Shown here: one piece after another, positions 44,350 through 64,000 of the stretch
Layout: each line of letters begins with the position of its first letter
Position numbering within the stretch: position 1 is the stretch's first letter
Sequence record: MN850595.1
DNA length: 64,000 bases
Source of the DNA: Escherichia phage naswa
Direction: 5' to 3' (one strand)
Made by a program: the position numbers and the translations under genes
The notes under the pieces: model-generated
What the model saw: only the letters and a program-made list of their open reading frames with translations
What the model was told of the DNA's origin: nothing
The model's database searches: none

Positions 44350-44367
44350 TTTTTTAACTGAATTATC

Positions 44368-44393
44368 AAGGGGCTTAGGCCCCTTTCTTTTTG
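44368..44393 (+). terminator. rho-independent terminator
   Basis: AAGGGGC-TTAG-GCCCCTT hairpin then TCTTTTTG. Confidence 0.6.
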
Positions 44394-44399
44394 TCTGCT

Positions 44400-46840
44400 C
44401 TTCCCCCCCTACCATAAACGGCCCTACCTGGCAAGTGGAATAATTGACGAGCCATCAATCCCACACACTGTACAAATATACATGGAAAATAACTATTGCA
44501 TAATTTTTCATTGTGTGGTAGCAAGGCCATTTTTACCCGTTTTACCTTCCAAAATTGCACGTAATGCCGCTATTGCACAAATTTTAACCTGATGCACATC
44601 TCCAATATCTTGTCAACAACTAAAAATCTTTATAAGTCATGCACTTACATAACCACAAAAGCGTGTTCTACGTGAAAAATCGAGTATAACTATAGCCGCC
44701 AGATCTCAGAATTTACGTACGCTCACCAGTCTATAGCCTGCTAAGTATTTATTCCAACCATAGAATAACGGAATAGTCAATACCTGCATAAAATAATTAT
44801 TCGTGTAAACTGCATAACATAAATCGGCTAGGATGTCAACATTTTTCGTAAACAGCTCGAAATTATAACGGTGAGTTATAATAAACAGAGAAATCTTTAG
44901 TCGTCTAATGTTTACTGTACATTACTATACTGACTGGAATCATTAGATGACTAAGAGAAAGATAAGAAATCATTAACAATGCAATTGTTTTATTCGTAAC
45001 AATAAGGCAACTATGCAAACGAATGGCATGGCGCGACGGAGTCGCGACATAATATAAAAGCAGTAACCATCACCCCCGTGATAGTTTGTCTGCAAACTAT
45101 TAATCAGATCATAGTTGCCTTGTATTTAGTTAATCATGACATAACAAGCAGGGCAACTATAGATCTGCTAATAGTTGCCCTGCTTTTATATTATGTCATG
45201 CTAATTATAATCAGTGCGATTATTGTCATGTATAATTATTGTCATGCAAACGAATGGCATGGCTGATTATCGGTGTGTAAACAGTCAATCATGTAAATGG
45301 TTAGCATGTGAACAATCAGGAATGTAAACAATCCAGTGTGTAAACTAATAGGTGTGTAAAAGTGTCATGTTGTGTCAGTTAGGTCACATTATGTCAGACA
45401 AGTTTTTCTCCTCTTTGTCAAGTGCTGCATGAAAAATTTACAAGCTTGTATGGTAGCATTTTTGCGGCCCTGTTTACATTCAGGAGTGTATGTATAATCC
45501 TTGGTGTGTGGGCGTTTAGACGTCTAGACGGTTGGAAGTATGCAGGTCAATATCTAATCTATTGGCTGCTAACTATATCCCACACAAATGATAAGAAATA
45601 TAATTGTTATATGCGTAAACTGTAACTCATGTTATCAATCCCTGTATGTATCGCCAGTGGTGCGCATAATGGGTATTATGTTAAATTGCCCGTAATGATA
45701 ACTATTCTCACAATGATAGGTATTCTCATTCACCCCCACAAGATAGGTTGCAAATGTTGTGCCACTGTGTGAACGGCCTAGCCTATTAATTTGCCTCACT
45801 GCCTTGATATTTGAGAATTGTTATAAGAATGAGAAGTATTCCCATTTCGTCCGCCTGGCAGCACTCCAGTCGCTACCGGCTCCTGACAGGGCAGCTCTCC
45901 TGTAGGTCAGGTCAAAATCGTGGTAGAATTGGGCCTATTCAGATATTTCTGGCTGACTCTTCAGGTCTGTGTGAGAAAAGCCAACCTTTCCGGCGGCGGG
46001 GAGGGGTCAATTAAAAAATTTACGTGGTGTATGAAGCGCTCTTCAGGTAAGGCAGGTATTATGTGATGAAACCCTCTTCAGGCAATGATATTTGTGGGTG
46101 TGATATTTGCTGGAAAGCCAGATATGACGGGACTCCCGGCGGGGCAGGGGTAGTACAGACAGGGAAAATATGGGGGATGTAGTTGGGGAAATTGATCAGG
46201 CAGGTAGAGTATGGAATATGTTACAAGTATGTTAAATATGGAGGTTGAATATCTGCAGGATTTGTGTGTAAAATCAAAGACTTAAGTGGTGTTGTGGTAT
46301 TTTCTATAAATAATTCAAGTTTAATAGGTAATATTTGTCTCTATCCACTTTGTGTGGTAAACAGATTCAGATGAAATTGGTTTACAAGTGTATACATAAT
46401 ATACAAATTAAAGATACAAGAAACCCCCCTCCCCCTTCGGCTACCATTCACCTTTTCCTCTGACTGGTACTTAAACACTTATTCAGACTCTTCAGGTTAT
46501 CACCCATATATCATATGGCAGTGACTGGTGTCCTCCGGCCCCTCTTTCGTCACCCGTCCGCTTCGCCATGCTAATGCCATAGCCAATGGTTCGGTTGTTC
46601 ACCCTGTTCACTCAGGTGTATCTCCATACCCCTTCAAACCGAAGAGAACAGAAAACCCGAATTACTCGGTAAAAGAAAAGAGAAGAACTTAATTTTATCA
46701 GGATAGGCAAGAATGTCAAGGCATGACTGCTCACTAAACAAGCAAACAGTCATGTGTGGTAGGTAAGTGATTGTGGTGGTAGGAAATTTAGTTGAAAGAT
46801 GTGTTATAGGTGCGCTTCCAGCACTTTAGCCGGGCAGCTA
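44400..46840. other. ~2.4-kb non-coding convergence region with several repeat families (candidate origin / packaging / terminus region)
   Basis: No long co-directional ORF; 20-bp direct repeat at 45013 and 45244; ATAGTT(G/T) palindromes 45082-45182; six TGTAAAC-like iterons 45276-45361; CTCTTCAGG x5 from 45957. Confidence 0.5.
45276..45361. repeat. six iteron-like repeats (TGTAAAC core, 14-17 bp period)
   Basis: Cores at 45276, 45293, 45307, 45323, 45339, 45355. Confidence 0.5.
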
Positions 46841-46848
46841 ATTGTGTG

Positions 46849-47064
46849 TCAGTCTAGCGGTTCATCCTCTACTTCACTGAAATCAATGTTCATGGTCTCT
46901 TCCCAACCATCGATCTCAGCACAAGAGTGGAGTTCTTTAGGGTTTACTCCCAAAGCCTCAGCAACAGAGTCTATATTTAACACCTCTGGCAGGTATGATT
47001 CATCGAATTCAAGGTAAATCAGGCCACGAGTGTTGTCAGCTCCACCAAATATCTCTATCTTCAT
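46849..47064 (-). CDS. hypothetical small protein
   Basis: Track ORF 71 aa; starts MKIEIF like other small proteins on this arm. Confidence 0.45.
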   Translation of the reverse strand: MKIEIFGGADNTRGLIYLEFDESYLPEVLNIDSVAEALGVNPKELHSCAEIDGWEETMNIDFSEVEDEPLD

Positions 47065-54783: not shown

Positions 54784-54802
54784 AAAAACCCTCCCGCCCG
54801 GT

Positions 54803-54997
54803 TTAGAATATTGCTTCTTCCATTGCGCCTGAGAGCAACAAAGAGGTGATCTGGCTAACATTCATCTCAGACTCTACTTCCTCCCCTTTGAAAGGTTCGC
54901 GGCAGAATAGGACTGTTTCAGGACTTTTACTTCGAACAATATAATACAAATCATTCAATGTGTTGTAGTAATAAGTGTTAAAACGTAAGTTTTTCAT
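54803..54997 (-). CDS. hypothetical small protein
   Basis: Track ORF 64 aa. Confidence 0.4.
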   Translation of the reverse strand: MKNLRFNTYYYNTLNDLYYIVRSKSPETVLFCREPFKGEEVESEMNVSQITSLLLSGAMEEAIF

Positions 54998-55281
54998 TTT
55001 CTAGTCCTCTTCTTAGATTTTTGGGGAGAAACGCTTTCTGCAATACGAGACAGACGTTCTTCTGAAGCCTTACCTACTCCAGGTTTTTTGAGTGGATTAT
55101 CTTTATGACCACAATCCAACTGGATATTGGATACCTCTCCAACTTTGTAAGTCAATTCTAGCAAAAGGTTGTCGTCCTTGTCAAATGTTTTTACGATAAA
55201 TTTTTTATCGTTCTCCTGAACTTCATATCTGGTACCTGCAGTATACAGCATGGTGCCATCAGCATAGGATATCCAAATCAT
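54994..55281 (-). CDS. hypothetical protein
   Basis: Track ORF 95 aa; ATGA overlap. Confidence 0.5.
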   Translation of the reverse strand: MIWISYADGTMLYTAGTRYEVQENDKKFIVKTFDKDDNLLLELTYKVGEVSNIQLDCGHKDNPLKKPGVGKASEERLSRIAESVSPQKSKKRTRK

Positions 55282-55625
55282 TGAGCCTCCTTTTGCTGCA
55301 ACAGCATTAACTCTTTGTTAGAAATCTTTACTGCTGTTTTTATTGTTCCATCTTCACGAAACCACGACCAGAACTCTACAGTGTCACCACTATCAAGTAA
55401 AGCATGCCCATGGTAAAAATCTTTGTCCTTAGACAGTTTCTCATCTATATCTGCATCAACACATTCGTGATCCATAGCATTTTGCCTGAACGCATCGGTT
55501 ATGCCAATGCACGCCTTGCTCTCAAGACTGGTATATCCGATATCTTTTAATTCAGTTTCCCAAGTCCAGTACCCTATAAAAGCTAAAACAGCTACCCACA
55601 GTAATAACGTTTTAATCTTTGGCAT
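55278..55625 (-). CDS. secreted or membrane-anchored protein
   Basis: 115 aa; N-terminal 'LLLWVAVLAFIGYWTW' hydrophobic segment. Confidence 0.5.
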   Translation of the reverse strand: MPKIKTLLLWVAVLAFIGYWTWETELKDIGYTSLESKACIGITDAFRQNAMDHECVDADIDEKLSKDKDFYHGHALLDSGDTVEFWSWFREDGTIKTAVKISNKELMLLQQKEAQ

Positions 55626-55687
55626 TCTCTCTACCTCTTTCTTAGTTTATTTCACTATGGCACATCCTTTGTGCCATATCTCAACTA

Positions 55688-56158
55688 CTACTTAAATAGT
55701 AGTTCAAAATAGTGCAAAATTAACAGAAGTTGAACTACACCTAGTGCAACGGCGAGTATGTTAATCTTAGAATCGAAAAACTTCTTAACTTTTACTCTAA
55801 AAGGTTCCTTAATGTCCTTTACGATCCTATCTATAGATGACCTCATATCTCTGATTACCATCCTGAACATTAAAGACGGATGCTCCCCCATCTCTGTAAC
55901 GGAATCGAAAACATACTCTCTTCGGTCATAAGGGCCGCCAGCTCTGCGTATTAACCTCTCCACAGAGACCTCGAACGTCACACCTGTAACGTAATCATCT
56001 ATAACAAGTCGTGACGGGTCTTTACCTTTACTATCAAGAGGTATCAAAGTTATCTTTCCAGATTTTGTTAAAATTTCCCCTTTTTCAAGCAAGGTGTACC
56101 AATGCTCTCTGCCAAGACTGTTGAGGCACGTTTTTACATATTTAACAAACATCGTCAC
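55688..56158 (-). CDS. hypothetical protein with C-terminal TM anchor
   Basis: 156 aa; C-terminal 'ILAVALGVVQLLLILHYF'. Confidence 0.5.
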   Translation of the reverse strand: MTMFVKYVKTCLNSLGREHWYTLLEKGEILTKSGKITLIPLDSKGKDPSRLVIDDYVTGVTFEVSVERLIRRAGGPYDRREYVFDSVTEMGEHPSLMFRMVIRDMRSSIDRIVKDIKEPFRVKVKKFFDSKINILAVALGVVQLLLILHYFELLFK

Positions 56159-56340
56159 CCCTCATCGCACGTCTGATATAACCACTCTATAAAATCTTGA
56201 TACCATTCGCCCTCTGAGCGCTCCGTAGGCCAATAATCTTCACCCTCTCGTGCATTAAAATCTGAGTATTCAACTTTCCACTCCTTTACCAGCTCGTGGA
56301 GAAGGTTTTCAGCCTGCTCTAAAGATTTATTTTTTACCAT
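56155..56340 (-). CDS. hypothetical small protein
   Basis: Start moved to ATG 56340 behind AAAGGAGA (track start 56358). Confidence 0.4.
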   Translation of the reverse strand: MVKNKSLEQAENLLHELVKEWKVEYSDFNAREGEDYWPTERSEGEWYQDFIEWLYQTCDEG

Positions 56341-56559
56341 TGCTGTCTCCTTTTTCAAGATAGTTATACATCAGAACTGCACCACCTAAGATGGCTACCA
56401 GTAACAATACCCCAGATAGCATCTCAATAAACATGGCTTGAAACACTGGAAGGCCTCCCTAAATTAACGCACCATTTTAAATACATGCTCTTTTCCCATA
56501 AAGGTGCCTGGCTAAGATCTGCGTAGAACGCAATCTCTTTAAGAACAGTATAAACAGTT

Positions 56560-56796
56560 TTAGGTGCGGTCTCCATCCCTACCCTCCTTTTTCTCCTTAC
56601 GGATATTCTTGTAGTAATCAACCAGGCACATTATCACGATGAAGATAACAACAGGCCAAAAAGGTGCAGCAGTGATGATGGTGATAAAATCATCAAACTT
56701 CACCCTTCGTCTGGACACGATGCATACACCTGTCAAGAATACCGCTGTTATAACGGACATTACCAGGTAACCTATTAGCACAACATTTATACTCAT
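56560..56796 (-). CDS. membrane protein (two TM segments)
   Basis: 78 aa; 'VVLIGYLVMSVITAVFLTGVCIV' and 'FWPVVIFIVIMCLV'. Confidence 0.5.
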   Translation of the reverse strand: MSINVVLIGYLVMSVITAVFLTGVCIVSRRRVKFDDFITIITAAPFWPVVIFIVIMCLVDYYKNIRKEKKEGRDGDRT

Positions 56797-56826
56797 TGGT
56801 CCTCCCTTTGTAGGTTAAATTGTATA

Positions 56827-57360
56827 CTACAAATGGCAACTGAGGGTGTCAAGAAAATTATCCCGTTCTTTCTCAGAGTTTTCATGGGTGTAGCTGAAAA
56901 ACATATCGAGAATAACCTTATTGATATATTCCAGCTCCTCTGTGTTCAGATGCTTAGCAGGATCTACAATGACATCCCAAATATCATACAGACCACACTC
57001 ATGATACCCATAACGCCACTCAATTGTCAAGCTGAGCGGCAAATCTTTACCGTCACAAACAACCTTCCATCTACATATGTTGGTATCTGGTCGTATCTGT
57101 GCACGGTACACCTGTACAAAATCCAATTTGAATTTGAGGTACTCGTCATACAATTTAAGCACAAAGCTCTCGATTTGTGGAGACACTTTTGCAGCAAACT
57201 GTGCGTATTTGTACTTGCACTGGATGATCTTTCTGCGTTTTGCAGTTAAATTTTTTGCCGCCAGTTGTTCTTCAGTGTATCTCCACCTACGATCAACAAA
57301 CGCAACAGGGTCTTTGTCCCCATAGAGGTCTTCCCAGTTAATCAGAAGCATACCTGTCAC
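56827..57360 (-). CDS. hypothetical protein
   Basis: Track ORF 177 aa. Confidence 0.5.
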   Translation of the reverse strand: MTGMLLINWEDLYGDKDPVAFVDRRWRYTEEQLAAKNLTAKRRKIIQCKYKYAQFAAKVSPQIESFVLKLYDEYLKFKLDFVQVYRAQIRPDTNICRWKVVCDGKDLPLSLTIEWRYGYHECGLYDIWDVIVDPAKHLNTEELEYINKVILDMFFSYTHENSEKERDNFLDTLSCHL

Positions 57361-57590
57361 TCCTCCACAACTTCAAGGCCTTTACCGCCTCGCTCTGGCA
57401 GATTACTTAAAGATAGGTAATACATATAATCAGGAGAGATCCTGCCAGACTCTGCACCTGCAGCTAGTAAATCCTTCCCTTTAACCAGGACAACATTCTC
57501 GTTTGCAGATAGCCGTTTTGCTTCCACAATTTTACCAACACAGTCAACCAAGGAAGGGTACCCTAAATCTGTAAGAAATTTAACTTTCAT
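57357..57590 (-). CDS. small protein, MKVK family
   Basis: 77 aa; MKVKFL start, 'VLVKGKDLLAAGA' core, '...GLEVVEE' end. Confidence 0.55.
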   Translation of the reverse strand: MKVKFLTDLGYPSLVDCVGKIVEAKRLSANENVVLVKGKDLLAAGAESGRISPDYMYYLSLSNLPERGGKGLEVVEE

Positions 57591-57629
57591 GCTACCTCCT
57601 GCTTCTACCGTCCCTGGTAAGATAAATTA

Positions 57630-58031
57630 TTACTGAACAGAGCGCGGGGCTAGGAAGGATAACTCTTCTAAAGAGAAGATTTCATTTCCTACCACCCAAG
57701 TTGCTGGATCATCTGGGTCAACAGGCTGGATAATCATTACCTCATCCGCCTCGCACACACGTTTCCCACCTATAGTAGCGGAGTCAGCCACTAGCATACG
57801 AGGCTCTTCAGAAATGCACAGGTAACCTCCTCGGCCCACTGTTCCTTCCACAGGATCCTGCCCTTTGACCACAATGAATACCTTCTCTCCTGTGGCGATA
57901 TTACTTTGCACACTAACAGTTTGACCAACTTTAGATGTACCGATCTTGGTGGCTTCAAACATTAAATCCCGAATTACTGTTGCATAGTTGCCGGACACTT
58001 TCTTACCTTCTTTAGTAATCTCAATCTTCAT
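57630..58031 (-). CDS. hypothetical protein
   Basis: Track ORF 133 aa; MKIEITKEG start. Confidence 0.5.
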   Translation of the reverse strand: MKIEITKEGKKVSGNYATVIRDLMFEATKIGTSKVGQTVSVQSNIATGEKVFIVVKGQDPVEGTVGRGGYLCISEEPRMLVADSATIGGKRVCEADEVMIIQPVDPDDPATWVVGNEIFSLEELSFLAPRSVQ

Positions 58032-58303
58032 AATCTAGGCTCCTTAAATGAATCTATGTAATCAATTAAATCCCAAGCATCGCGATGGGCTGTCAGAGGG
58101 TATACTTCTCCGAGAGGGATCATAGCAATAAGTCTATCAAAAACCCAGTCTGGACGCAACATTTTATGGTGATATTCCCACTCACCTTCCACAGATTTTT
58201 TCTGAGTGATCAGGATCTCTGTGTAGTGTTTCGACTGTCTTGAGTAGATTGAAAATGACTTGTACATAAATGACCCCCTCTTGTTGAAAACAACAATACA
58301 CAA
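58028..58303 (-). CDS. hypothetical protein
   Basis: Track ORF 91 aa; ATGA overlap. Confidence 0.5.
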   Translation of the reverse strand: MCIVVFNKRGSFMYKSFSIYSRQSKHYTEILITQKKSVEGEWEYHHKMLRPDWVFDRLIAMIPLGEVYPLTAHRDAWDLIDYIDSFKEPRL

Positions 58304-58588
58304 CTACCAGGTTACTGTCAAGTAGGCAACCGTATTATTTTTCTCTGGGGAGATGCCAACAACATCTACCTGCAGACCTCCTGCCCTTAAATCTCCAACA
58401 ATGTGCGGGAAGTAATCTGAGAGATGCGATGGTAGATTTATCGAAAATCCGCACCCCAGAAAGCCTGCTAACGCTTTATTTTGTATCTCCCCTACAATCG
58501 CATCATAAATAGAGTTAAGCTCGTCAGGAAGCGTTACAGGACGTTTTAGCGCTAACTGGTGTAATTTGTCCTTAGCACTCATTTTCAT
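58304..58588 (-). CDS. hypothetical protein
   Basis: Start moved to ATG 58586-58588 overlapping upstream stop (ATGA); track start 58618. Confidence 0.45.
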   Translation of the reverse strand: MKMSAKDKLHQLALKRPVTLPDELNSIYDAIVGEIQNKALAGFLGCGFSINLPSHLSDYFPHIVGDLRAGGLQVDVVGISPEKNNTVAYLTVTW

Positions 58589-59118
58589 TTCAGGTCTACC
58601 TCTGGAGGTGCCAACCACATAAATGGCGGCAAGTCTAAACGGTTTTTCTTATCCCAGACAAAATATGCATATGCTTGCCCGTCAGTTCTGCCATTTGATT
58701 GAAAAGATGGACGCTTAGATATTGTGATCACAGTGGTAGGTGCATTATCAAGCCACCATTCAAATCTGGCTTTGCTTTCCAGAAAATTAAGACGCAAAAG
58801 CATAATAACTACGTCAGCATCTTTCAACGCCTTGTCTACAAACTCACGAGCCAAACTGTATGGTGGGTTGGTGATAATACAGTCAACATGGTTGTATTCT
58901 GTATTCAGATAGTCAACACCTTCTTGGATTTCTCCCCATGCAGATCCTAACGGCATACGTGAGTAGAACACACCTGAGGCACTATTCCTGCAAGGCTCTA
59001 AATAGGTCCAGTCTTCTGGGAACGGAATAAGGTCATACAGCCCTTCTGCACACCACTCCGGTGTCACATACTCATCGTAAGCGTTACGTTGTTCATCAGG
59101 TTTTCTAGCACAAGTCAT
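58585..59118 (-). CDS. small N6-adenine DNA methyltransferase (phage Dam-like)
   Basis: 'TNPPYS' catalytic motif; upstream 'YVTPEW...LEPC' segment as in compact phage Dam-type MTases; 177 aa. Confidence 0.6.
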   Translation of the reverse strand: MTCARKPDEQRNAYDEYVTPEWCAEGLYDLIPFPEDWTYLEPCRNSASGVFYSRMPLGSAWGEIQEGVDYLNTEYNHVDCIITNPPYSLAREFVDKALKDADVVIMLLRLNFLESKARFEWWLDNAPTTVITISKRPSFQSNGRTDGQAYAYFVWDKKNRLDLPPFMWLAPPEVDLK

Positions 59119-59127
59119 GCAAATCTC

Positions 59128-59160
59128 CAGATCATAAAAGCCCTCCGAAGAGGGCTTTAG
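59128..59160 (-). terminator. rho-independent terminator (minus strand)
   Basis: AAAGCCCTC-TTCG-GAGGGCTTT hairpin followed by TTTTAT on minus strand. Confidence 0.5.
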
Positions 59161-59169
59161 AATTAATGT

Positions 59170-60219
59170 TTAAGCTTCTTCGACAATTCCTGCACCCAGG
59201 ATTTTTTCATTGAGCTCTTTTGCTGTTTTAATAATATTGTCCACCAGACGCTTGCGAGTCTTATCTTTTACCTTAACCTCTTCACCGCCGTTCAGGGTTG
59301 TCTTCAATTGGGACAGAATGTCTTGAAGTTCAACGACAGAGAATCGCTGCAGATCTTCTGAAGTAATCTCACTCAGGGCAATTCTGACGGTCTCGCCACT
59401 TTCCATCTGCAGATTCAGGAACACAGTGTGAACATCACCTTTCGAACCACCCGCTTTTGCAGATTCAACAGCATGAACTAACTCATCTAAAGATGTGCAC
59501 TGGTGAATCTCCGGAAGACCTGCTTCACCTAACACGCCTTCTTCATCACCTTTTGCCAGAAGCTTTTTCGGTTTTTGTCCGTTCTGGATGCGTTGTATGT
59601 TGCCTTCATCCAGAATAATAGCTCCAGTGCGTGCTGCCAGCTCTTCTCCGTCCAACCACACTTCGCCACCAGCTGTGATGGATGCGATCTCATCTTCTGT
59701 CAGCACCCCACCGTAGTATTTTTCGATCAGGCGTTCAAAACGTTTTTTCCAGTAGCTGACCTGAGTATTCATGTTCACACCGTTACCATAAGTGCCACCT
59801 TGATAGTAGTGGAACATAAACTCTGTGTCCGGAGCCACAGTACGTTCTTTACAACCAAGCCATAAGATTGTTCCAGCAGAGCAGCACATCCCTTCAGCAT
59901 GTGCAACAACGCTTGCCTGAGACTCTCGGAATGCCTGCAGATAAGCCATTGCAATGTGCACGCAACCCCCAGGGCTATTGATGATCACCCGAATGCTTTC
60001 TTCCGGCTGAGCCATACGGATCGTCTGCAGACGAGACATATGATCTTGTAAGTCTTCCAAATCGTCGATATAAAGAACGTGGTCAACAACAGGTGTTGGG
60101 TAGCTGTATGTTTCCATGATACCGCCCGGCATACCAAACATTTTATTACTCATAGGTTCGAAACCGTTCTGTTTTTCTTTCATGCCGTGTACCATGGTTC
60201 TGCGAGGTGTTAAATTCAT
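59170..60219 (-). CDS. ClpP/S14-like serine peptidase with C-terminal extension
   Basis: 'VIINSPGGCV' and 'GMCCSAGT' resemble ClpP oxyanion/Ser regions; ~150-aa extra C-terminal region. Confidence 0.6.
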   Translation of the reverse strand: MNLTPRRTMVHGMKEKQNGFEPMSNKMFGMPGGIMETYSYPTPVVDHVLYIDDLEDLQDHMSRLQTIRMAQPEESIRVIINSPGGCVHIAMAYLQAFRESQASVVAHAEGMCCSAGTILWLGCKERTVAPDTEFMFHYYQGGTYGNGVNMNTQVSYWKKRFERLIEKYYGGVLTEDEIASITAGGEVWLDGEELAARTGAIILDEGNIQRIQNGQKPKKLLAKGDEEGVLGEAGLPEIHQCTSLDELVHAVESAKAGGSKGDVHTVFLNLQMESGETVRIALSEITSEDLQRFSVVELQDILSQLKTTLNGGEEVKVKDKTRKRLVDNIIKTAKELNEKILGAGIVEEA

Positions 60220-60279
60220 GAGAAATCCTTAATATTGGAAGTTGAAAGCTATTTATTTAAACCTGATTCACATTTACCT

Positions 60280-60591
60280 TTATTTAGCAATCACTATGGA
60301 ATACTTACGATTGTCAGAAGCATCACAACTCAATGATTGCCAGTCTACCACATACCACGTATCATTGTCAACAATTACTTTATCGCCTGTTCTGTAGCAA
60401 GTGCTGCTTTCAATAATTCGAGACTCGATAAAGAATCTGTGTCGGCGCTCACGTAGCAACGCTAAGTTAATTATATTACCACCGCTGTCCTTGGTCCACA
60501 CATTCTTGGATCCCTTATTTGCCAAAATTGTCTCGCCGTTATAGACAAACAGGCAGTATATTTTATTCAGTTTCTCTTGTATTGTAGCCAT
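60280..60591 (-). CDS. hypothetical protein
   Basis: Track ORF 103 aa. Confidence 0.5.
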   Translation of the reverse strand: MATIQEKLNKIYCLFVYNGETILANKGSKNVWTKDSGGNIINLALLRERRHRFFIESRIIESSTCYRTGDKVIVDNDTWYVVDWQSLSCDASDNRKYSIVIAK

Positions 60592-60619
60592 ACTGTCCTT
60601 CTCTCTGTTTTGTCCGATA

Positions 60620-60648
60620 ATAATATCTAAAGCTTACCTATTTGTCAA
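60620..60648 (-). promoter_or_regulatory. sigma70-like promoter (TTGACA-N17-TATTAT, minus strand)
   Basis: Hexamers read on reverse complement upstream of gene starting 60591. Confidence 0.5.
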
Positions 60649-60692
60649 CAACTGTTTTAGATATTTAAGGGTGGAATAACCACCCTTCTGTA

Positions 60693-61481
60693 TTACTCGG
60701 AAACAGGGGTCCAAATATGATTTGCACGATCCTCAATAAGATTGAGTGCGATTTGACGACCCAACCCGGAACGAACGACATCGTCTGGACTATCAAAGCT
60801 GATCATTCCAACCTCAGGATCTGGATGACGAGTAAAGAAATCCGTCACCCATGCAAGGCCAGATTTACCAGGGATGTCACGTTGGCTATTATCACCCATA
60901 ATTACAAGGGTGGCTTGATCAGAGATCCTTGTGATAATTGACAACATTTCTTCAGGGTTAGTTTGCTGTGCCTCGTCAATCAGGACAAAGCATCGCTCAT
61001 CGAAACTACGACCACGAATGCTTTCAACTTCACAAATCTCGATACGACTGTTCTGACCGTCTCCCAGCATTGCGGCAAAAGCACCTTTGCCAACACGACG
61101 ACAAATCGTGTCCATCATGCTTCGAAGATAGGGCCACAGTTTCTGCATTGCATTTCCGGGTTTAAATCCTGAAGTCTTTCCTGTCTGGACGTAAGGACGT
61201 GCAACAATGATCTTATCAATCTCGTTCTTACGCAGAAGATCACCTGCATATGCAGATGCCATAAATGTCTTACCGGATCCAAACACACCGTTTACAATAA
61301 TAATCTTACGTGACCCTAGATAATCAAGATACTTTTGCTGCTTCTTATTCATTGGTCGGAGAGCTGGAGCGGTGTGCTCTCTTTCGTCAGCAAATTTCTC
61401 AGCAGCCTTACGCAGGCGATCAGATTTGCGAGCCTCTCTAGCTTCATCACGCATGCGTTTTGTTTCTTTAGCTCGACCCAT
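60693..61481 (-). CDS. phoH: PhoH-like ATPase
   Basis: Walker A 'GVFGSGKT'; 'FVLIDEAQ' Walker B; PhoH-like size and order. Confidence 0.75.
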   Translation of the reverse strand: MGRAKETKRMRDEAREARKSDRLRKAAEKFADEREHTAPALRPMNKKQQKYLDYLGSRKIIIVNGVFGSGKTFMASAYAGDLLRKNEIDKIIVARPYVQTGKTSGFKPGNAMQKLWPYLRSMMDTICRRVGKGAFAAMLGDGQNSRIEICEVESIRGRSFDERCFVLIDEAQQTNPEEMLSIITRISDQATLVIMGDNSQRDIPGKSGLAWVTDFFTRHPDPEVGMISFDSPDDVVRSGLGRQIALNLIEDRANHIWTPVSE

Positions 61482-61519
61482 GTTGGGACTCCTTTCAGAT
61501 TGAGATGTGCCAAGTACTT

Positions 61520-61870
61520 TTACTGCAACAGTTTTTCAATAGCCGCTTCCATGCTGCTTGCAACAGCCTGAACTCGGATATTCATCTCTTCTTGGTGGAT
61601 CAGCTCCTTAAGCTCTTTAATGGTAAATTCTTTAGAGAAACCTTCCACCATAATCTTGTGCAAGGCTTCTTGCGTGTCTACTTGCAAGAACTTTTCCAGT
61701 TTGTTGGCAGAGGCTTCTAAATCAGCCCGAATACGAGGGTCATCTGTGCGATTCAGCATTAGGCGTAAGCCATCAAGATTAGTAGAAATAGCATCTGCAT
61801 GTTGAGTAACTAACCGTGGCAAAATGAGATCTACAAACTTATTAGCCAAATCGATACGTTCTTGTGTCAC
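61520..61870 (-). CDS. hypothetical protein
   Basis: Track ORF 116 aa; GTG start overlaps stop of upstream mini-ORF. Confidence 0.5.
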   Translation of the reverse strand: MTQERIDLANKFVDLILPRLVTQHADAISTNLDGLRLMLNRTDDPRIRADLEASANKLEKFLQVDTQEALHKIMVEGFSKEFTIKELKELIHQEEMNIRVQAVASSMEAAIEKLLQ

Positions 61871-61980
61871 TGTTGCACCCCCTCTTCATCTTCATGATGT
61901 TTCTTTTCACGCTTGTGTTTTTTCTTAAGCTCAAGCGCAATCTCTTTCTTGTACGCCTTCTTCAAGGCTTTTTTAGCCAT
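61867..61980 (-). CDS. Lys-rich mini-protein (37 aa)
   Basis: ATG behind GAGGAGG; 'MAKKALKKAYKKEIALELKKKHKREKKHHEDEEGVQQ'; below track cutoff; directly downstream of consensus promoter. Confidence 0.4.
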   Translation of the reverse strand: MAKKALKKAYKKEIALELKKKHKREKKHHEDEEGVQQ

Positions 61981-62009
61981 TTGGCACCTCCTCTGCTTTC
62001 ATTACGACA

Positions 62010-62039
62010 ATTATAACCGACTTAACAAAGCTTTGTCAA
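62010..62039 (-). promoter_or_regulatory. sigma70 consensus promoter (TTGACA-N18-TATAAT, minus strand)
   Basis: Both hexamers match consensus on reverse complement. Confidence 0.55.
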
Positions 62040-62042
62040 CGA

Positions 62043-62516
62043 TTAGTCAACCTGAACCCAACCATCTGCTACCTTTTTAAACATTCTTTGGTTATCACTG
62101 CCTCTAAAGGGTTTTTTGGTGGGGTTATCTTTTTCGTACTTACCGTCCATAATGTAATCAACACTATCTTTAATGTAATCGGGGACTTCTTCAAACAAAT
62201 ACCCTGTGTACACCCAGATAGTTTTTGTGTTGCCGAAGTGTTCACGGATAGCGCGAATGATCGAGTACATACCATCAATATTGTAAGGCGCTAAAGGTTC
62301 GCCACCGCATAATGTAACGCCAGTAATGTGTTTCGGCTCTATAGAGTGAAGTATACTCTCAATAGTGTCATTTGTTAACGGTTCCCCTTTAGCTGGTGAC
62401 CAAACACTTTTGTTTTGGCAACCGACGCAGTGATGTGGGCAACCAGAACAGAACACCGTTGTCCTAATGCCTGGGCCGTCAACCATGCTACACTCTATAA
62501 TATTAACAACATTCAT
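62043..62516 (-). CDS. nrdG: anaerobic ribonucleotide reductase activating protein
   Basis: Radical-SAM cluster 'CSGCPHHCVGC', 'VDGPGIRTTVF', 'CGGEPL', 'IWVYTGY', 'RGSDNQ' as in NrdG. Confidence 0.8.
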   Translation of the reverse strand: MNVVNIIECSMVDGPGIRTTVFCSGCPHHCVGCQNKSVWSPAKGEPLTNDTIESILHSIEPKHITGVTLCGGEPLAPYNIDGMYSIIRAIREHFGNTKTIWVYTGYLFEEVPDYIKDSVDYIMDGKYEKDNPTKKPFRGSDNQRMFKKVADGWVQVD

Positions 62517-62749
62517 TCCTTATCCTCTTTTAGGTAAGGATATTCAGGCCCACAATAAGCTCTATCCAAGAAAACAGCTTCTTCCCCTCTGGAATCAGTA
62601 GATCTATAATACCCATCACCATGGTAACTAACGAACCAGTGGCACCCATCATCGCTTTCTACTGTTGTGGCTCTGTCCGAATGAAAGATAATTTCGTAAT
62701 CCTTACCGAATGTAAACCATCTGTTAGCTTTTACACAGACACCTATCAT
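62513..62749 (-). CDS. hypothetical small protein
   Basis: Track ORF 78 aa; ATGA overlap with nrdG. Confidence 0.45.
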   Translation of the reverse strand: MIGVCVKANRWFTFGKDYEIIFHSDRATTVESDDGCHWFVSYHGDGYYRSTDSRGEEAVFLDRAYCGPEYPYLKEDKE

Positions 62750-62900
62750 AAGGAACCTCTCTTCTGTGATGTGCTTCTATTCAAGATAAACCTATAAAAG
62801 TCCATTTGATGAAGCCGTATAACTTTTTATACTTACGCTTCAGTGCTAACAATTTTATCTTGATTTTCTTGATAGATTTCCGCATTTCGACCCCTTATGC

Positions 62901-63017
62901 TTATAAGTACTCCGCATCGCATTCAGGGCAATGCCAAATAAAATCGTCCAGTGCCTTGCACCAACGAAGATTGCAACGACAACCACACTTGCAAATTTTA
63001 TAAATACCTGATGACAT
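62901..63017 (-). CDS. Cys-rich mini-protein (38 aa, zinc-ribbon-like)
   Basis: ATG behind AGGAGGTG; 'CKCGCRC...CPEC' pattern; below track cutoff. Confidence 0.4.
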   Translation of the reverse strand: MSSGIYKICKCGCRCNLRWCKALDDFIWHCPECDAEYL

Positions 63018-63069
63018 ACTGCACCTCCTTAGTTAATAGCATGTTTAAGATATGCATATCTTTCTACAA

Positions 63070-64000
63070 TCATTTACCACAAATCTTCTTGTATACCTCT
63101 TCTACCGTGTCAAACACTTCAGGCCTGTAGTAGAAAAACTCAGTGCTACCGTCAAATTTTACAGGAAAGTTTATTTTATACTTGCTCAAGGCCTTATGCA
63201 CAGATTTTTCTAAATCTACCATGTTTTGAGTTGATCCGCTCCATGTTTTTACTACGTGAAGAGTGTGGACACCTGCGCCAGATTTACGAGCACTGTTAAG
63301 CACCTCATTTTTCCTCCTGTGCATTTTAACGCATACACCGATTTTCATAAGTGTTGGCACTTCTAAGTCATCAACCATAATGTAGAGTTTACCGTACTCA
63401 TGAGATAAGAATCCATTTTGTGCGCATTTACAGCAGCCACGACCACTTTTTAGGTTATTAGGTTTAGCAGACCACTTATACCTACAAATTTTGCACCTAC
63501 ATTGCACTTTTGTGTTATCATTGGCAATTTTCTCTAATATTTCTATGTCTGGGTTGGCTTTGTGGATAATTGCAGCGTGCTCCTTATGGGTTAACGCTTG
63601 ACTTTTCCCACGTCTTAAGTCATAGCACTCTGGGCAGCCGTTTCTTTGGTATAAGTGGTTTTCAGGGTATTGTTCAAACACACCGTGTTCAGGGCAAACA
63701 ATTTTTACAGGCGTTCTCATGTTCGCATATTTGACTAATGAGTAATCGTACTTGTCCCCATGAACAGCCATAGCCTCTTTTATGAACTCTTCAGTGTTCT
63801 TTTTCGCTGACCCACCACACCTTGGACAACCATGATTCTTGAAAGCATGTGCCACAGGGGTTTGCCAGAACTCACCGTGCTCAGGACAAATTATACACAC
63901 AGGTGTCTTGTTGTTTTTATACTCCACTTTGAAGTAATCATATTTGTCACCATGTATAGTCTGAGCTTTTTCTATAAACTCTTCGGTTGTTAGTCTTCTC
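63070..64000 (-). CDS. homing-endonuclease-like protein (N-terminus beyond window end)
   Basis: Reading frame open to window edge; repeated 'HGDKYDY...CPEHG.F.Q.P..H...GCP.C' modules; C-terminal 'KIG...RR..E...LEK..H..L...GSTEFF' resembles GIY-YIG/T5orf172-type domain. Confidence 0.45.
   Translation of the reverse strand, partial: RRLTTEEFIEKAQTIHGDKYDYFKVEYKNNKTPVCIICPEHGEFWQTPVAHAFKNHGCPRCGGSAKKNTEEFIKEAMAVHGDKYDYSLVKYANMRTPVKIVCPEHGVFEQYPENHLYQRNGCPECYDLRRGKSQALTHKEHAAIIHKANPDIEILEKIANDNTKVQCRCKICRYKWSAKPNNLKSGRGCCKCAQNGFLSHEYGKLYIMVDDLEVPTLMKIGVCVKMHRRKNEVLNSARKSGAGVHTLHVVKTWSGSTQNMVDLEKSVHKALSKYKINFPVKFDGSTEFFYYRPEVFDTVEEVYKKICGK

Follow-up and report, generated by a model that had tools for sequence, protein, structure and literature searches.

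Introduction

Phages that encode both genes of a class III ribonucleotide reductase (RNR) normally keep the two together (PMC3653736), and both nrdD and nrdG are known targets of homing-endonuclease genes (HEGs), as in phage T4, where the free-standing HEG mobC has its insertion site between nrdG and nrdD (PMC2988022). T5orf172 nucleases form a subfamily of GIY-YIG; those of phages usually have zinc-finger repeats of the CapR, DUF723 and DUF4379 types, and T5orf172 HEGs are concentrated in the vicinity of RNR and other essential genes and mark the borders of genetic exchange (PMC10448857).

Here we describe the nrd locus in a stretch of 64,000 nucleotides from Escherichia phage naswa (hereafter the window), whose sequence identifies it as part of the genome of an rV5-like coliphage (Vequintavirus). 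As in T4, where the order is nrdD-mobC-nrdG, the class III RNR genes of the naswa-type locus are parted by a free-standing HEG, and in T4 and the Vequintavirus locus alike nrdD may hold a mobile intron in some relatives. The lineages differ (Tevenvirinae for T4, Vequintavirus for naswa), as do the endonucleases: that of mobC belongs to the HNH family, whereas the naswa enzyme is a T5orf172 (GIY-YIG-related) protein with CapR/DUF723 zinc fingers. Unlike T4, the naswa-type locus also has two small open reading frames, orf38 and orf78, between nrdD and nrdG. The architecture of the naswa endonuclease, with zinc-finger repeats at the N-terminus and T5orf172 at the C-terminus, is shared by the ICP1-type T5orf172 HEGs (Barth et al. 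2023, PMC10448857), and like them it adjoins an RNR gene and sits at a divergence boundary between near-identical phages, although cleavage, homing and target are putative in the present case. In rV5, APCEc02, inoa and WalterGehring/Bas51 (BASEL), the DNA of the nrd locus is identical or nearly identical to that of the window and nothing substantive differs; the GenBank entries for inoa, I29 and WalterGehring already annotate nrdD, then a gene labelled hypothetical, T5orf172 or "putative homing endonuclease", then nrdG. The locus is a conventional, already annotated class III RNR operon with a mobile endonuclease gene, and nothing in it is new in kind.

Results

The starting point was an earlier note, made on the window alone, that reported an nrdG without an adjacent nrdD and proposed that nrdD might lie beyond the window, be interrupted by a neighbouring endonuclease gene, or be dispensed with in favour of the host enzyme. 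Its identification of NrdG, the radical-SAM activase of class III RNR, was well founded. In a profile search, the 157-aa open reading frame at 62043-62516 on the minus strand matched TIGR02491 with 148 bits (cutoff 126.1; E = 2e-43) over model positions 1-152 of 154, together with Fer4_12 (2e-38) and Radical_SAM in Pfam and PHROG 626, "anaerobic ribonucleotide reductase small subunit" (2.5e-54). The diagnostic motifs can be read directly in the translation: the radical-SAM CX3CX2C motif for the 4Fe-4S cluster lies near the N-terminus as C26-PHH-C30-VG-C33 (CPHHCVGC), and the GGEP motif for S-adenosylmethionine binding lies within L69-CGGEPL. By profile and motif, 62043-62516(-) is a bona fide NrdG gene. 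A sigma-70-type promoter-like site at 62010-62039 on the minus strand (TTGACA-18-TATAAT, from the inoa scan, L001 14040-14011) lies 4 nt past the nrdG stop codon; it is a consensus match only, at 12 of 12 positions, and putatively marks the end of the nrd unit. Beyond it, at 61867-61980, lies a Lys-rich open reading frame of 37 aa that is wrongly called "anaerobic NTP reductase small subunit" in APCEc02.

Does this nrdG truly stand without its nrdD? Within the window it does, as the earlier note held: a six-frame tblastn search of the 64 kb, with a Vequintavirus NrdD as query, found no NrdD-like sequence (best E = 3.4). The window's final base is the G of the ATG of the endonuclease gene, whose start codon would occupy 64002-64000, and the sequence past position 64000 was taken from relatives rather than read from the window. 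In a base-by-base comparison, Escherichia phage inoa (MN850593; Vequintavirus), in which the ATG is read, is 100% identical to the window over 54800-64000, the last 9.2 kb; upstream of 54800 the differences are scattered, giving a mosaic, and identity over the 24.5 kb of 39500-64000 is about 97%. In inoa an intact nrdD of 712 codons has its stop at window-equivalent 64121, only 121 nt past position 64000, and the claim that nrdG lacks an adjacent nrdD is not confirmed. The inoa protein matches NF006732 with 822 bits (cutoff 657) over model positions 3-707 of 712, TIGR02487 with 528 bits and PHROG 487 with 953 bits. It contains the Pfam domains ATP-cone, NRDD and Gly_radical, and its C-terminus holds a four-Cys zinc ribbon (CLKCG...CPACG) and the glycyl-radical motif RRVSGY. 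Upstream of nrdD, inoa carries genes for glutaredoxin, nrdB and nrdA.

Between the endonuclease ATG and nrdD, inoa shows a promoter-like TTGACT-17-TAGTAT, then a GAGAGCA/TGCTCTC hairpin, a run of 14 T and the nrdD stop; the terminator-like hairpin with its T-run lies at window-equivalent 64092-64109, after the nrdD stop. A terminator and nrdD tail are conserved within about 120 nt of the endonuclease start in every genome that carries this endonuclease gene. HEG-bearing genomes differ in the length of the T-run after the hairpin, from about 5 to 14 T (L001 16080-16093 and the equivalents in L005-L019), which may be either homopolymer length polymorphism or assembly noise.

An upstream nrdD recurs throughout the 23 relatives compared, namely 10 contigs that encode the exact NrdG of the window, 10 further Vequintavirus contigs and three GenBank genomes (APCEc02, I29 and WalterGehring). 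All 10 contigs with the exact NrdG have the order nrdA, nrdB, grx, nrdD, HEG310 (the endonuclease gene), orf38, orf78, nrdG. In all 23, nrdD lies directly upstream of the nrdG unit and is followed next by the endonuclease gene or, where the HEG is missing, by orf38; relatives that lack the HEG encode a complete NrdD of 707 aa. An intact nrdD immediately past the endonuclease gene, which the earlier note said would make the locus ordinary, is thus what every relative shows, and its suggestion of an nrdD past the window edge holds as far as testable. We infer that the naswa genome continues like inoa past position 64000. The impression of an nrdG without nrdD is very probably a window-edge artefact, the window stopping inside the nrd operon. 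We put at roughly 96% the probability that the source genome carries nrdD just past the window edge, the apparent orphan nrdG being such an artefact in an otherwise ordinary nrd locus with a mobile HEG.

A variant of this reading places nrdD beyond the window and adds, in the naswa genome too, a mid-gene insert resembling an HNH-bearing group I intron. Such inserts do occur among the relatives. In five of the 23 (L004, L007, L012, L015 and L024) nrdD is split at about codon 287, L007 and L012 being the two cases among the 10 contigs with identical NrdG, and the nrdD of WalterGehring is annotated as a joined CDS. The insert measures about 0.8 kb and carries an HNH_3 gene in four of the five; that of L024 is about 260 nt long and has no open reading frame. 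The Rfam model Intron_gpI matched L007 6828-7115 with 27.7 bits (E = 7e-5), below its gathering score, and an Rfam scan of the window and L007 at gathering thresholds found nothing, as did a tRNA scan of the window. Against an insert in naswa itself stands inoa, identical over the last 9.2 kb, with an uninterrupted nrdD, and we regard a split naswa nrdD as unlikely, though a case to be reckoned with. The codon-287 insert is in any event unrelated to the T5orf172 endonuclease gene.

A phage truly without nrdD, whose orphan NrdG would activate the NrdD of its E. coli host, is very improbable. The empty tblastn search of the window fits it, and the mosaicism upstream of 54800 makes another arrangement past the edge conceivable, though one unprecedented among the 23 relatives. 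However, naswa would then have to part from every relative precisely where the window ends. The last base of the window is the third of the HEG start codon, past which HEG310 genomes have the terminator and nrdD tail within about 120 nt, and the relatives with nrdD immediately upstream include the 10 whose NrdG is the same and the one, inoa, that matches the window base for base over its final 9.2 kb. Reliance on host NrdD, as the earlier note had it, is unnecessary and unsupported, given an nrdD upstream in 23 of 23 relatives. We consider it more likely than an orphan NrdG that the T5orf172 endonuclease and nrdD form an uncharacterised HEG-target pair, the enzyme cutting the stretch of nrdD that encodes the glycyl-radical motif. 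That the endonuclease gene at the window end splits nrdD, as mobE splits nrdA in Aeromonas phage Aeh1, is scarcely credible even though HEGs split RNR genes in some phages (PMC3653736) and another element interrupts nrdD at codon 287 in the five Vequintavirus relatives above: the NrdD upstream of the HEG aligns end to end, zinc ribbon and RVSGY included, its frame has its own stop codon and terminator-like hairpin, the endonuclease has its own ATG, nothing downstream of the HEG resembles NrdD (orf38, E = 0.35), and the HEG-less relatives keep the same complete protein.

The endonuclease gene itself, HEG310, is a free-standing HEG that occupies 63070-64000 on the minus strand, running to the window end, and its product has three zinc-finger modules followed by a C-terminal T5orf172 nuclease domain. 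In relatives the protein is 310 aa long. T5orf172 scores 31-32 bits (cutoff 20), the Pfam families DUF723, CapR and DUF4379 are all above their gathering scores, and PHROG 681, "endonuclease", matches at 9e-64. The gene is present in some relatives and missing from others. Its DNA was found in about 19 phage records, at one place per record, as against 121 records with the nrdG region; among the 23 loci compared, 13 carry HEG310, two carry at the same site a different HEG of 331-333 aa with 52% identity, and eight have none. In alignment, the gene is cleanly inserted after the nrdD stop and ahead of the orf38 ribosome-binding site, and neither nrdD nor orf38 is interrupted.

Presence of HEG310 goes with a divergent nrdD tail. 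Over the last 157 nt of nrdD, HEG310-linked and HEG-less loci have only 63.7% DNA identity; over the 326 nt upstream they have 98.2%. When 61 codons of the tail were compared, 21 were identical, 29 differed synonymously and 11 differed non-synonymously, and the recoded, HEG310-linked tail yields an NrdD of 712 aa instead of 707 aa. It co-segregates with HEG310 in 13 of 13 HEG310 genomes, and the HEG-linked 3' end (L001 16122-16300) corresponds to window-equivalent 64121-64299. In two loci the tail is chimeric and changes allele at the RVSGY codons. One, L016, has the other HEG; the second, L022, has no HEG, and its tail resembles the trace that partial co-conversion or loss of the HEG would leave. 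Taken as sequence patterns, the polymorphic insertion and the divergent tract linked to it are what a free-standing homing endonuclease with a co-converted flank is expected to leave behind. The HEG310-linked flank is presumably immune to cleavage, and we infer that the endonuclease is active, with a target in the 3' end of nrdD.

The neighbours of nrdG given in the earlier note, a 78-aa open reading frame and a homing-endonuclease-like gene, are both present, at 62513-62749 and from 63070 to the window end; a third gene between these two, orf38, had been omitted. The 78-aa frame, orf78, lies on the minus strand, belongs to PHROG 3249, of unknown function, and overlaps nrdG in an ATGA that joins its stop to the nrdG start. 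We weighed it as a dedicated partner of NrdG and rejected it in that role. Vequintaviruses with the other nrdG allele lack it, and homologues occur in Rtp-like siphophages, among unrelated small genes and away from RNR genes; since homologues are found in this non-RNR context, orf78 is not a dedicated NrdG partner.

Two nrdG alleles circulate among Vequintaviruses that are otherwise 95-98% identical (window 62043-62516 versus L003 6046-6519 and L015-L024). The proteins they encode are 52% identical, and both pass the TIGR02491 equivalog model. The naswa-type ("class A") allele is always paired with orf78; the second allele is coupled directly to orf38. Over their final 30 or so residues the two NrdG proteins are almost the same, suggesting that a recombination boundary lies within nrdG.

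The Cys-rich, zinc-ribbon-like orf38 (38 aa; 62901-63017, minus strand) holds eight Cys (MSSGIYKICKCGCRCNLRWCKALDDFIWHCPECDAEYL); in every one of the 23 Vequintavirus loci (numbered L001-L024) it is conserved, between nrdD and nrdG. It matches PHROG 20137 (4e-31), and no family was detected for it outside that group. Some records and PHROG 20137 itself label it "ribonucleotide reductase"; comparison with NrdD gave no significant similarity (E = 0.35), so this label is unsupported. The idea that orf38 is a detached C-terminal zinc ribbon of NrdD was rejected on the same value.

Two observations concern the wider context of the window and its relatives. At about 44350-46850, where gene blocks on the plus and minus strands switch, some 2.5 kb contain no open reading frame longer than 72 aa; GC falls to 0.39 and the sign of the GC skew flips. 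The region has clustered direct and inverted repeats; among them are an exact direct repeat of 20 nt (45013 and 45244) and, at 44997-45197, a motif of the ATAGTTGCC(C/T)TG type. The inoa homologue of the region carries no annotation. The stretch may serve as an origin or in regulation. Separately, about 19-25 GenBank records of the MG0656xx series, titled "Campylobacter phage" with C. jejuni as host, share about 98% identity with E. coli Vequintaviruses at this locus; the deposited set appears to be mislabelled or contaminated.

Discussion

The locus as we reconstruct it would read, 5' to 3' on the minus strand, nrdA, nrdB, glutaredoxin, nrdD, then a terminator, a promoter and the T5orf172 HEG, followed by orf38, orf78 and nrdG, with nrdD at about 64121-66259 in window numbering. 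The phage would then encode both subunits of the class III (anaerobic) ribonucleotide reductase, and its NrdG, with S-adenosylmethionine and a 4Fe-4S cluster, would generate the glycyl radical on the NrdD that the phage itself encodes, at the RVSGY motif. The endonuclease gene would be a selfish, free-standing HEG inserted in the nrdD-orf38 intergenic region, and it would travel with the recoded last 160 nt or so of nrdD, as expected of a co-conversion or cleavage-immunity tract.

The value of the locus is modest. It offers a natural example of a T5orf172 HEG at a recombination boundary, linked to a synonymously recoded nrdD 3' end that spans the glycyl-radical motif, and it could be used to study target site and immunity in the poorly characterised T5orf172 HEG family.
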